In this document: positions 46,419 through 61,693 of the stretch, one piece after another
How positions within the stretch are numbered: position 1 is the stretch's first letter
Layout of the letters: the number at the start of each line of letters is the position of its first letter
Assembly (NCBI RefSeq): GCF_003334815.1
Contig: NZ_QOWO01000004.1
Direction: 5' to 3' (one strand)
Length of the DNA stretch: 64,000 nt
Source of the DNA: Escherichia coli
GTDB lineage: Bacteria; Pseudomonadota; Gammaproteobacteria; Enterobacterales; Enterobacteriaceae
The notes under the pieces: model-generated
Seen by the model: only the letters and a program-made list of their open reading frames with translations
Told to the model about the DNA's origin: nothing
Databases searched by the model: none
Program-made: the position numbers and the translations under genes

Positions 46419-46607
46419 GCCTGATGCGACGCTGGCGCGTCTTATCAGGCCTACAAGACCCGAGCACAGAACCGTAGACCGGATAAGGCGTTCACGCCGC
46501 ATCCGGCATTCAGTGCCTGATGCGACGCTGACGCGTCTTATCAGGCCTACAGGTCCCGAGCACAGAACCGTAGGATGGATAAGGCGTTTTACGCCGCATC
46601 CGGCAAC
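46419..46607. repeat. REP/BIME cluster (at least two REP units) between wzxC and wcaK
   Basis: Repeated gcctgatgcgacgctggcgcgtcttatcaggcctac and ggataaggcgtt(c/t)acgccgcatccggca units. Confidence 0.85.
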
Positions 46608-48112: not shown

Positions 48113-49507
48113 TCAATATGCCGCTTTGTTAACGAAACCTTTGAACACCGTCAGGAAAACGATTTTGATATCGAACCAGACGCTCCATTCGCGGATGTAC
48201 TCAAGGTCGAACTCGACGCGTTTTTCCATTTTCTCCAGCGTGTCGGTTTCGCCGCGCCAGCCGTTAATCTGCGCCCAGCCGGTAATGCCCGGTTTCACTT
48301 TATGGCGCAGCATGTAGCCTTCAATGAGCTGGCGATACTGTTCGTTATGCGCTACTGCGTGCGGACGTGGACCGACAATCGACATCCCCCCGGTCAGCAC
48401 ATTGATAAACTGCGGTAATTCGTCCAGCGAGGTGCGGCGCAGAAAGTTCCCCACTTTAGTGACGCGCGGATCGTTCTGCGTCGCCTGGGTCACCACTTTG
48501 TCGTTCTCCATCACTTTCATGGAACGGAACTTCCACACTTTGATCGGCTTGCCATCCATGCCGTAGCGAGTCTGGCGGAAAATAACCGGCCCTGGTGAAC
48601 TGAGTTTTACCGCCAGCGCAATACAGCACAGCACCGGGGAGATCAGCAGCAAGATCAGCGTCGCCAGCACAATGTCTTCCGCACGTTTTAGCAGGCGGTT
48701 AACCCCGGAAAGCGGCGTGTCATACAGCGGCACCACCGGAACGCCGTTCATCTCTTCGAGACGTGAATGGAGAATATTGAAGGTAAAGACATCGGGGATC
48801 AGCAGCACCGAACAGGTGGTGTCCGCCAGTTGATGGACCAGTTTTTTCACTCGCGCGCCGTCGCACATTTGCATCGCGATATAGACGTTATGAATCTTGC
48901 CCGCTTTAGCATCCTCGACCAGCTGTTGCAGATTGCCCGCCCAGTCGTTAGAAACGCCGCCCGGTTTCGGGTCGTGGTAAACGCCCACCACTTCAAACCC
49001 TAACCACGGCTGATTACGGAAGCTCTCCATCAGCATTTGTCCGGCGGCTAAATCCCCCGCCACCGCGACCATGCGCTTGTTATAGCCATGATTACGCAGC
49101 CAGCCCGCCCCAATGCGAATACATGAACGGCAAACCACCAGTCCGATACTGGTCAGCCCATACCACGCCAGCCAGATTTTCAGTTGCGTGTCGAAATCAT
49201 TGTTGAACGCCACCAGTCCGGCGCTGAAAATCACGCTTAAGGTCCAGTTTTGTAGCAACAGGGCAAATTCTGTCGCTGCCCGAACACCGCGCCATGAGCG
49301 ATAAAAATCGGTGATGCCGCCCAGCATCTGGAACACCACCAGCGTAATCAACGCCACCAACAGGTGCATGTAGAGGAATGACAGTCCGCTCACTTCGCAA
49401 ACCAGCCATAGTCCGGCAAACATGATGGTGATATCTGAAAAGCGTTGCACCATAGAGATTAACGATGCATTGGTTTTCGCTCGCTCGCGCTTTTTTAGAT
49501 TTGTCAT
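48113..49507 (-). CDS. wcaJ: UDP-glucose:undecaprenyl-phosphate glucose-1-phosphate transferase WcaJ
   Basis: 464 aa; polyprenyl-phosphate hexose-1-P transferase C-terminal domain. Confidence 0.9.
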   Translation of the reverse strand: MTNLKKRERAKTNASLISMVQRFSDITIMFAGLWLVCEVSGLSFLYMHLLVALITLVVFQMLGGITDFYRSWRGVRAATEFALLLQNWTLSVIFSAGLVAFNNDFDTQLKIWLAWYGLTSIGLVVCRSCIRIGAGWLRNHGYNKRMVAVAGDLAAGQMLMESFRNQPWLGFEVVGVYHDPKPGGVSNDWAGNLQQLVEDAKAGKIHNVYIAMQMCDGARVKKLVHQLADTTCSVLLIPDVFTFNILHSRLEEMNGVPVVPLYDTPLSGVNRLLKRAEDIVLATLILLLISPVLCCIALAVKLSSPGPVIFRQTRYGMDGKPIKVWKFRSMKVMENDKVVTQATQNDPRVTKVGNFLRRTSLDELPQFINVLTGGMSIVGPRPHAVAHNEQYRQLIEGYMLRHKVKPGITGWAQINGWRGETDTLEKMEKRVEFDLEYIREWSVWFDIKIVFLTVFKGFVNKAAY

Positions 49508-49519
49508 CGTTGTTCCTGT

Positions 49520-49635
49520 TCTATTGTCGCCTCGCCCCTCACCCCGGCCCTCTCCCCAAAGGGGCGAGGGGGAGAAGAAAGTTCCGTGCTCACTTCTCTC
49601 CGCAGGCAGTAGAGCGTCAGGGTGAGGGGGAAAGT
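49520..49635. repeat. GC-rich structured intergenic element with inverted repeats (class undetermined)
   Basis: gcccctcaccc ... gggtgaggggg inverted repeat with an internal ctcccc/aaaggggcgaggggga palindrome, between the cpsG stop and the wcaJ start. Confidence 0.4.
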
Positions 49636-49642
49636 AATGACA

Positions 49643-51013
49643 TTACTCGTTCAGCAACGTCAGCAGAGTTCGCGTTCGCGCTTCCATCAGCGGTACATCA
49701 CCGCGCGATTCCACATTCAACCGCACCACCGGTTCGGTGTTGGAGGAGCGCAGGTTAAAGCGCCAGTCGGCAAAGGTCATGCTGATACCATCGGTGCGAT
49801 CCACCGCCAGCGCCTCACGGCTAAAGTGCTGTTCCACGCGGTTAATCGCCTCAACGGGTTGCGCCAGTTTGCTGTTGATCTCACCGCTTGCCGGAAACGC
49901 CGCCATCCGGTCGCGCACCAGTTCGCCCAGCGTTTTTCCTTTCAGGCACACCAGTTCGGCGACCAGCAGCCATGGGATCATGCCGCTGTCGCAGTAAGCG
50001 AAATCACGGAAGTAATGGTGGGCGCTCATTTCGCCACCGTAGATGGCGTCTTCCTTGCGCATACGTTCTTTAATAAAGGCGTGTCCGGTTTTCGACATTA
50101 CCGGGGTGCCGCCTGCGGCAGTCACCACATCAACGGTATTCCAGGAGAGACGAGGATCGTGGATGATCTTCGCGCCGGGATTTTTTTCGAGGAACGCTTC
50201 TGCCAGCAGGCCGACAATGTAGTAGCCCTCAATAAACTGCCCTTTTTCGTCAAACAGGAAGCAGCGGTCAAAATCGCCATCAAAGGCAATGCCCATATCC
50301 GCGCCGTGTTTGATGACCGCATTGCGGGTGTCGTCGCGGCATTCCGGCAGTAGTGGGTTAGGAATACCGTTGGGGAAATTGCCGTCCGGCGTGTTGTGCA
50401 CTTTGATTAATTCCACGGGTGCGCCGAGGGCTTTAAAGCGGGCTTCAATGGCGTCCACCACCGGACCCGCTGCGCCGTTCCCGGAGTTGATCACCAGCTT
50501 GAGCGGCGTGAGGTTTTTGACGTTGATATAACCGAACAGGTGATCAACGTAAGCGTCACGCAGGTTGATTTGCTGATAGCGACCGCGTTTGGTTTCATCG
50601 ACGGGAGGAAAGTCGTTGGCTTCAGCCAGACGCTGGACGTCGCGCAGTCCGGTATCTCCGCTGATCGGGCGAGCCCCCTCGCGAACCAGCTTCATGCCGT
50701 TATAATCCATCGGATTATGGCTGGCGGTAACTTCAATGCCGCCATCCACGCCGAGATGGAACGTGGCGAAATAGATCTCTTCGGTGCCGGACATACCAAT
50801 ATCCAGCACGTCAACGCCCGCATCCTGTAAACCTTTTGCCAGCGCCAGTTTTAAGGTTTCGCTGGTGAGACGGACATCACCGCCTAACACAATGGTTTTC
50901 GGTTTGAGAAATTCGCCATAAGCGCGACCAATGCGCCAGGCAATATCTTCATTCAATTCTTCGCCTAATTTCCCGCGAATATCATAGGCTTTAAAGCAGG
51001 TTAATTTTTTCAT
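49643..51013 (-). CDS. cpsG: phosphomannomutase
   Basis: Start at [15 protein letters not shown]; 456 aa. Confidence 0.9.
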
Positions 51014-51102: not shown

Positions 51103-51203
<101 letters not shown>

Positions 51204-61583: not shown

Positions 61584-61693
61584 GCCGGATGCGGCGTGAG
61601 CGCCTTATCCGGCCTACGGAGCTGGTTTGCTTGCCGGATGCGGCGTGAAGGTAGGTCGGATAAGATGCGTCAGCATCGCATCCGACAGCGGAT
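61584..61693. repeat. REP element(s) between wzc and wcaA
   Basis: gccggatgcggcgtgagcgccttatccggcctac-type units. Confidence 0.8.

Follow-up and report, generated by a model that had tools for sequence, protein, structure and literature searches.

The GC-rich palindrome between cpsG and wcaJ in the colanic acid (wca) operon examined here is almost certainly an inverted dimer of BoxC, the repeat also known as PIT and TMECO, made of one intact unit and one decayed unit. This family is an already known one rather than a new one, and presence in some strains and absence from others is known behavior of BoxC. As to identity the finding is closed, the element being one more copy of a repeat already catalogued. 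The reading that we favor joins this identity to a role as a REP-like stem-loop in the wca transcript, and we give the two taken jointly a probability of roughly 0.6.

The element was analyzed within a window of 64 kb, the whole stretch of DNA under study. The element proper occupies approximately 49534–49630 and lies wholly inside the cpsG–wcaJ spacer, which is part of the wca operon transcript (Table 1). An earlier note on this DNA, made from the letters alone, had sited it between these two colanic acid genes; both are on the minus strand, and open reading frames and RefSeq annotation agree on the placement. The outer stem of the element begins 12–13 nt 3′ of the cpsG stop codon, and the wcaJ ribosome-binding region, 27 nt downstream of the structure, is unpaired in the predicted fold.

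Table 1. Features of the cpsG–wcaJ junction and REP elements at other wca junctions, by position in the 64-kb window.
Feature	Position	Strand	Description and basis
cpsG–wcaJ intercistronic spacer, long allele	49508..49642	-	135 nt; ORFs and RefSeq annotation of identical junctions
cpsG (phosphomannomutase)	49643..51013	-	Stop codon 49643-49645 from ORF; start inferred from the 1,371-nt RefSeq cpsG
wcaJ (undecaprenyl-phosphate glucose phosphotransferase)	48113..49507	-	Start 49507; ORF and RefSeq annotation
Outer stem, 5′ arm	49619..49630	-	CCCCUCACCCUG in transcript; 12-bp stem closing the whole structure; MFE and inverted repeat
Outer stem, 3′ arm	49534..49545	-	CGGGGUGAGGGG in transcript; MFE and inverted repeat
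Intact BoxC/PIT/TMECO core	49535..49570	-	CCCTCGCCCCTTTGGGGAGAGGGCCGGGGTGAGGGG; type B, one stem mismatch; consensus match
Block 1, C-rich stem	49562..49570	-	CCCTCGCCC; read against published motif
Block 2, first G-rich stem	49548..49556	-	GGGAGAGGG; Watson-Crick partner of block 1; sequence and fold
Block 3, second G-rich stem	49536..49544	-	GGGTGAGGG; potential triplex third strand, also outer-stem 3′ arm
Classical BoxC unit (core and ~20 nt spacer)	49534..49589	.	56 nt common to dispersed E. coli copies; blastn
Inter-unit spacer	49571..49592	-	GCACGG core common to other dimers (Kluyvera, Lelliottia, Buttiauxella, K-12 lldD–trmL and yagE); alignment
Degenerate inverted second unit, type-A-like	49593..49630	+	CTTCTCTCC GCAGGC AGTAGAGCG TCA GGGTGAGGG GG; alignment
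REP, wzxC–wcaK junction	46474..46507	-	REP consensus
REP, cpsB–cpsG junction	51151..51184	-	REP consensus
REP, wcaA–wzc junction	61584..61617	+	REP consensus

Both inverted repeats that the earlier note had described are present. The outer one (gcccctcaccc at 49534–49544 with gggtgaggggg at 49620–49630) extends in an inverted-repeat search to arms of 19 nt (49535–49553 and 49611–49629) that are 84% complementary, and the inner one (ctcccc at 49552–49557 with ggggag at 49569–49574) to arms of 7 nt that are 100% complementary (49551–49557 and 49569–49575). The energetically preferred inner register differs from this, pairing CCCTCTCCCC (49548–49557) with GGGGCGAGGG (49561–49570) with one mismatch. 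When the minus-strand RNA was folded, as the note had proposed, the minimum free energy (MFE) was −59 kcal/mol, compared with −45.4 ± 3.6 kcal/mol in dinucleotide shuffles (z = −3.76; one of 200 shuffles was equally stable), which is structure beyond chance. The nested palindrome is thereby confirmed as real. In the predicted MFE structure the RNA adopts a closed three-way arrangement, with a 12-bp outer stem around two inner hairpins, one formed by CCCUCGCCCC and GGGGAGAGGG and a weaker one formed by the inter-unit spacer, and the final 17 nt of the spacer transcript, which hold the wcaJ ribosome-binding region, are left unpaired.

BoxC, found in E. coli and other Proteobacteria, is a palindromic repeat that is GC-rich and non-coding. 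It was named in the 1990s, described as PIT (potential intrastrand triplex) by Hoyne and Maher (2000, 2002) and renamed TMECO by Holder et al. (2015), so that the three names denote one element (PMC4666352). The published TMECO consensus, CCCTCNCCC N3-6 GGGNGAGGG N3 GGGNGAGGG (PMC4666352), has a single match in the window, at 49536–49570 on the minus strand, with 0.00 matches expected from shuffles; this is the only BoxC copy in the 64 kb. With the next G, these 36 nt are identical to TMECO no. 3 of MG1655 at the yagE locus, one of the 23 copies listed for K-12 and a type B copy with one stem mismatch (PMC4666352, Table 1). We also used the 135-nt spacer as a blastn query against 5,426 complete E. 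coli genomes. A 56-nt alignment (query positions 27–82, window positions 49534–49589) is 91.1% identical to the K-12 yagE-locus copy, whose locus sequence was read directly, and a BoxC unit is described as ~56 bp (51–59 bp), of which the original MG1655 record annotates 33 copies (PMC5172473).

The search for other copies that the earlier note had called for found matches to the core in 4,611 of the 5,426 genomes, in 28,083 places with a median of 6 and a maximum of 15 per genome. All but 15 of these places (28,068) are chromosomal, and genomes whose 135-nt spacer equals that of the window have 11 core places each. The site is strictly intergenic, which is a trait of BoxC. The note had made its reading depend on further copies and on conservation of the paired bases in other strains, and both copies and kept pairing were found. 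Its suggestion of a different small repeat family is right in that the family is other than REP, and wrong insofar as it implied novelty, BoxC/PIT/TMECO having been described already. Its other suggestion, an RNA structure that influences segmental mRNA stability, agrees with the tentative role discussed below, and the note's interpretation is supported in part.

Inverted pairs of BoxC join one type-A unit (TTA loop) to one type-B unit (CCG loop), and a decayed version of this arrangement may be present here. The right unit is type B; the left, second unit (49593–49630) has TCA where type A has TTA, and its blocks 1 and 2 are degenerate. Its third block alone is intact, it fails the strict TMECO motif and it is ~76% identical to consensus by our own count. 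In an alignment with intact dimers from Kluyvera, Lelliottia, Buttiauxella and the K-12 lldD–trmL spacer, it corresponds to their inverted type-A unit column by column. At the left-unit position, the type-A TTA loop is found in strains SW071610 and NCTC9040. In the portion of the published 56-genome TMECO catalogue supplement that was available, the terms wcaJ, cpsG, manB and colanic gave no match, and in the available portion of its Table S8 coordinates near this site were not found for O55:H7 CB9615, whose copy fails the strict pattern because its third block carries GGGTGCGGG.

The full 135-nt spacer, here termed the long allele, occurs in 509 of the 5,426 complete genomes, always at cpsG–wcaJ, and ~89% of E. 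coli strains are without a BoxC dimer at this junction. In the comparison with K-12 recommended in the earlier note, the K-12 spacer is 54 nt, 81 nt shorter than that of the window, and the dimer is absent. In K-12 and O157:H7 alike, this 54-nt spacer contains just a 9-bp hairpin, CCCTTACCC-CACTGC-GGGTAAGGG, and the majority of strains have a spacer of this short form. Strains with the long allele include O55:H7 CB9615, O145:H28, O39:NM and O102:H6. Among eight long alleles that sample the whole identity range, the differences are substitutions and 1-nt indels, chiefly in C and G runs, and these changes are mostly non-compensatory decay. An example of decay of the element in situ is E. coli E69 (CP089930.1, spacer 2374–2500), in which a 7-nt deletion takes most of the third G-block (GGGGTGAGGGGCGAGG to GGGGTGAGG) and a substitution has occurred in the opposite arm too.

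Strains of the CFT073, UTI89, S88 and 536-like types, which we take to be phylogroup B2, are at the low end of TMECO copy number. This number, which spans 1–30 in E. coli, follows lineage, with 1–2 copies in the strains just named, 10–11 in O157/O55 and 20–30 in K-12, B, W and O104-, O26- and O111-type strains (PMC4666352, Table S1). Frequent intergenic change at TMECO loci is also published, as is a "palindrome effect" at inverted dimers, whereby part of both units is missing and a stem-loop is left. The polymorphism of long and short alleles matches this known indel and "palindrome effect" behavior of BoxC.

K-12, O157 and E. whittamii have identical short alleles, and those of Salmonella arizonae and Citrobacter amalonaticus/sedlakii differ little from them. 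Because it is common to E. whittamii, Salmonella arizonae and Citrobacter, the short hairpin looks ancestral for this clade rather than the product of recurrent deletion, as far as these sequences allow. The long-allele arms CCCCCTCACCC and GGGGTGAGGGG correspond to the short-hairpin arms CCCTTACCC and GGGTAAGGG, so that the long allele looks like the short hairpin with its loop exchanged for ~85 nt. Decay of the left unit argues against a recent insertion of a consensus dimer, and the data are compatible with insertion, gene conversion and introgression as the origin of the long form. The O55:H7 strain CB9615 (NC_013941.1, 2577249–2577519) carries the long allele with GGGTGCGGG as its third block, and O157:H7 carries the short hairpin allele. 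This pair fits a replacement proximal to the O-antigen locus during the O55-to-O157 switch, with its boundary at or beyond the spacer.

To place the junction in a wider context, loci were fetched by WcaJ from 80 species, most of them Enterobacteriaceae, with one genome per species, and the cpsG–wcaJ spacers were extracted, which gave 71 distinct spacers from ~75 Enterobacteriaceae species. Although their sequences are very divergent, 69 of the 71 contain a GC-rich helix (6 bp or more, of which 4 or more are G-C pairs). The helix starts at a median of 10 nt 3′ of the cpsG stop codon (within 15 nt in 53 of the 69) and ends at a median of 23 nt before the wcaJ ATG. A stable helix 4–15 nt after the cpsG stop is found across most of the sampled Enterobacteriaceae, and folding z scores are below −2 in 58 of the 71 spacers, with a median of −3.1. 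What fills the position varies. Simple hairpins are seen in E. whittamii, Salmonella arizonae, Citrobacter, Leclercia, Lelliottia and Kosakonia. Enterobacter, Kluyvera, Lelliottia, Buttiauxella, Superficieibacter and others have either long hairpins of two blocks or spacer-containing BoxC dimers. The hairpin is retained in Salmonella arizonae, and the strict TMECO motif is reported to be absent from Salmonella (PMC4666352). At the same junction in Cedecea colo and C. sulfonylureivorans, palindromes of a REP-like type (GTAGGGCGGATAAGC...GCCATCCGCC) were noticed by eye only. What may be new in this analysis is that a stem-loop position after cpsG is kept across genera and occupied interchangeably by hairpins, BoxC or REP-like elements.

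Conservation of the pairing was assessed by aligning 16 spacers of the Escherichia, Salmonella and Citrobacter types with MAFFT; RNAalifold predicts the same 10-pair helix for them. Standard pairs fill 97.3% of the cells of this helix, and compensatory changes occur at two of its pairs (C-G to U-A in 5 sequences and G-C to A-U in 7). None of 500 shuffles reached the observed pairing or covariation score, and slid partners pair at 46–65%. Between-sequence identity is 81–85% in the arms, 44% in the loop and 64–69% in the flanking spacers. The independent compensatory events are few, about two or three, and such changes could also arise by hairpin-templated (quasipalindrome) mutation without selection. 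A comparison of sense and antisense folds of the 71 spacers did not demonstrate selection on the sense RNA: G-U pairs numbered 171 and 150, respectively, which is not significant, and the sense fold was more stable by 1.5 kcal/mol (p = 0.003) on sequences that are related and therefore non-independent.

A few of the fetched loci deserve separate mention. The record CACSKA010000001.1, titled Chryseobacterium sp. 18061, has a wcaJ of enterobacterial type (81% identity) with the usual hairpin and ribosome-binding site, and is probably a mislabelled or contaminated assembly. The junction in a locus labelled as an uncultured Raoultella MAG is that typical of the Citrobacter freundii complex. In Citrobacter youngae CCUG 30791 and Citrobacter sp. 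Cu233, AT-rich sequence (AAATCTATTATTCATTTCTGTTAAC...) lies upstream of the hairpin and relaxing the ORF criterion revealed no long cpsG frame; the gene may be disrupted in these two strains, or replaced.

Other junctions of the operon harbor palindromic repeats as well. The REP consensus occurs at three sites in the window (Table 1), and the same three wca sites have been reported as REP-bearing and indel-prone in O157 strains (Iguchi et al., PMC3158064). A fuzzy TMECO search of 474 kb of wca loci returned 69 matches, all at three operon junctions, namely cpsG–wcaJ (42 in 26 loci), wzxC–wcaK and cpsB–cpsG. The latter two are occupied by REPs in this window and by BoxC dimers in other genera. 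Orthology of the dimers across genera, which had been considered on the basis of their common "minus then plus" order, was dropped, the same order being usual at wzxC–wcaK.

By analogy with REP, an intercistronic RNA stem-loop in the wca transcript is the most likely mechanism, although we hold it tentatively and at somewhat short of even odds. This role is suggested because the structure begins 12–13 nt 3′ of the cpsG stop codon and keeps the ribosome-binding site of wcaJ free. REPs and other hairpins between cistrons have two established effects on RNA: they block 3′-to-5′ exonucleases and so stabilize the upstream segment (the malE–malF model; PMC5927463), and within 15 nt of a stop codon they stall the terminating ribosome (Liang, Rudd and Deutscher, 2015, as summarized in PMC12306157). 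We propose that the polycistronic wca transcript would fold at the dimer into the closed three-way structure, and that the dimer would do the job done in K-12 by the simple hairpin and at neighboring wca junctions by REP/BoxC palindromes. The stem-loop would block 3′-to-5′ exonucleases and stabilize the upstream GDP-sugar gene segment ending in cpsG; a helix within 15 nt of the cpsG stop might stall terminating ribosomes; and the structure would leave the wcaJ ribosome-binding site free. The parts specific to BoxC, the third block and the second unit, appear dispensable, because ~89% of strains do without the dimer. Polymorphism of the site would be explained by triplex- and hairpin-prone DNA, as a side-effect and not as the function.

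The positions of BoxC in K-12 bear on the same question. By our own count from Table S2 of the catalogue, 18 K-12 BoxC loci comprise 9 co-directional, 7 convergent and 2 divergent gene pairs; 16 of the 18 are downstream of a gene end, often 11–23 nt away, and one is inside the pst operon. It may also be that spacers after stop codons are permissive and that palindromic repeats simply build up there. A stronger proposal is that the stem-loop after cpsG is a selected feature, for which BoxC dimers, hairpins and REP-like palindromes are interchangeable fillers, with BoxC acting on RNA as REP does. We regard this as rather unlikely. If true, BoxC would set the ratio of the GDP-sugar genes to wcaJ/wzxC through an exonuclease block or ribosome stalling at the stop, and this would be the first function for BoxC, to which published studies assign none.

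The competing explanation that weighs most in our assessment is that the element is a neutral passenger, a selfish or accidental BoxC copy with no role, while the hairpins of other species are decayed remnants of an ancient insertion whose pairing was kept by hairpin-templated (quasipalindrome) correction instead of selection. Three published studies have found no function for BoxC, copy number varies from 1 to 30 among E. coli strains, the dimer is absent from 89% of them and long alleles decay by non-compensatory changes, all as such a passenger would have it. The short hairpins also resemble single BoxC blocks (CCCTTACCC compared with CCCTCACCC, and CCCCTCTCCC with CCCTCTCCC), and deletions that leave a stem-loop are already described at BoxC dimers. 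A passenger accounts less well for a helix that recurs in 69 of 71 spacers, across many genera, with its spacing to the stop codon and the ribosome-binding site held constant, or for arms whose conservation exceeds that of the loop and flanking spacer. The hairpin persists, moreover, in Salmonella arizonae, from whose genus the strict motif is reported absent, and the REP-like palindromes of Cedecea at the same site argue for a stem-loop requirement over shared descent. On balance we consider the passenger reading somewhat unlikely. An improbable reading moves the action to the DNA: non-B DNA, whether an intrastrand purine-motif triplex, a cruciform or a G-quadruplex on the G-rich sense strand, would stall replication or repair and create a hotspot of indels and recombination beside the O-antigen locus. 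The site has two very different alleles and small indels in its G and C runs, the sense strand has four G-runs (GGGGAGAGGGCCGGGGTGAGGGG), and O55:H7 carries the long allele where its relative O157:H7 carries the short one. TMECO loci are also more variable than control loci, and oligonucleotides of the type-B-mismatch class, not necessarily of exactly this 36-nt sequence, gave triplex CD and NMR signals in vitro; no triplex signals were obtained in duplex DNA (PMC4666352). In vivo DMS footprinting of the K-12 copy with the same 36 nt (6′ site, TMECO no. 3) likewise left a stable triplex unsupported (PMC4666352). The short allele, being old and common to several species, is not a product of recurrent deletion, and instability accounts for the polymorphism, not for the retention of the helix. 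The triplex-forming property is likely a cause of instability and not the function.

Two further classes of explanation can be set aside with greater confidence. A very stable hairpin between two cistrons could be a transcriptional signal, either an internal terminator or attenuator after cpsG or a wcaJ promoter. This is very improbable and largely refuted: an intrinsic (Rho-independent) terminator was rejected, as the stem is followed by CGAGGCGACAAUAGAAC and no U-tract, and a promoter and terminator pattern scan found no terminator and no sigma-70 promoter at the element. In earlier tests, as summarized in PMC4666352, PIT elements acted neither as promoters nor as terminators and left RNA polymerase unaffected. 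Elsewhere the terminator scan marked one weak terminator-like hairpin inside wcaJ. A weak terminator-like hairpin also lies over the cpsG stop codon (49638–49662, minus strand), with 10 pairs of which only 3 are G-C, followed by TTACTTTCCC; it is probably due to chance, and its T-rich tail is confined to the long allele. The strong predicted structure could also be that of a curated structured RNA (a riboswitch, sRNA or leader) or of a REP/BIME element, to which we give next to no weight. Rfam covariance models run over 49000–50200 at a permissive E-value brought no family close (E > 1), with best scores of 12.7–16 bits against gathering thresholds of 40–71 and E ≥ 1.1, and the matches, to eukaryotic lncRNA or snoRNA models below those thresholds, were rejected as chance. 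The REP consensus GCCGGATGCGGCGTRAACGCCTTATCCGGCCTAC, allowing up to 3 mismatches, has no match at 49508–49642 and is present at the three other sites in the window, in line with the earlier remark that the element does not match the REP units elsewhere in the cluster.

We return to the BoxC dimer as a possible REP-like stem-loop, and to what it may be useful for. E. coli strains with the long or the short allele form a natural test bed for an RNA-level role of BoxC. The wca genes are poorly expressed under laboratory conditions. The alternation of BoxC and REP at the same operon junctions, together with the kept helix, is a modest comparative addition. In addition, the junction adjoins the O-antigen recombination hotspot, and an unstable palindrome at this position could mark the boundaries of serotype switches such as that from O55:H7 to O157:H7.

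Among known systems, the closest is BoxC/PIT/TMECO itself, with which the element shares the 36-nt core of K-12 copy no. 3, the 56-nt unit, an intergenic chromosomal site just after a stop codon, the inverted dimer of a type-B and a type-A-like unit and variable presence among strains. It differs in that its second unit is degenerate and off consensus, and K-12 is without the element at this locus. The K-12 dimer 17/18 in the lldD–trmL spacer is built alike, having an inverted type-A unit, a spacer and a type-B-mismatch unit with the GGGTGAGGG blocks outermost; it starts 11 nt after a stop codon and shows the "palindrome effect" in 10 strains. Unlike the element described here, both of its units are intact, its spacer is longer and its position is operon-terminal, not internal. 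REP/BIME elements, such as that of malE–malF, are likewise dispersed GC-rich palindromes in transcribed spacers after stop codons and occupy adjacent wca junctions, whereas their sequence is unrelated to that of the element, and RNA-level effects are established for REP and inferred for BoxC. We know of no dedicated transposase (RAYT) for BoxC. Finally, Dar and Sorek (2018; PMC5927463) used measured decay and 3′ ends to define protective 3′ structures at the borders of operon segments that decay at different rates. Most of these structures lie inside the downstream coding region, unlike the element; in common with it, they place a stable structure at a cistron boundary that is conserved across Enterobacteriaceae.
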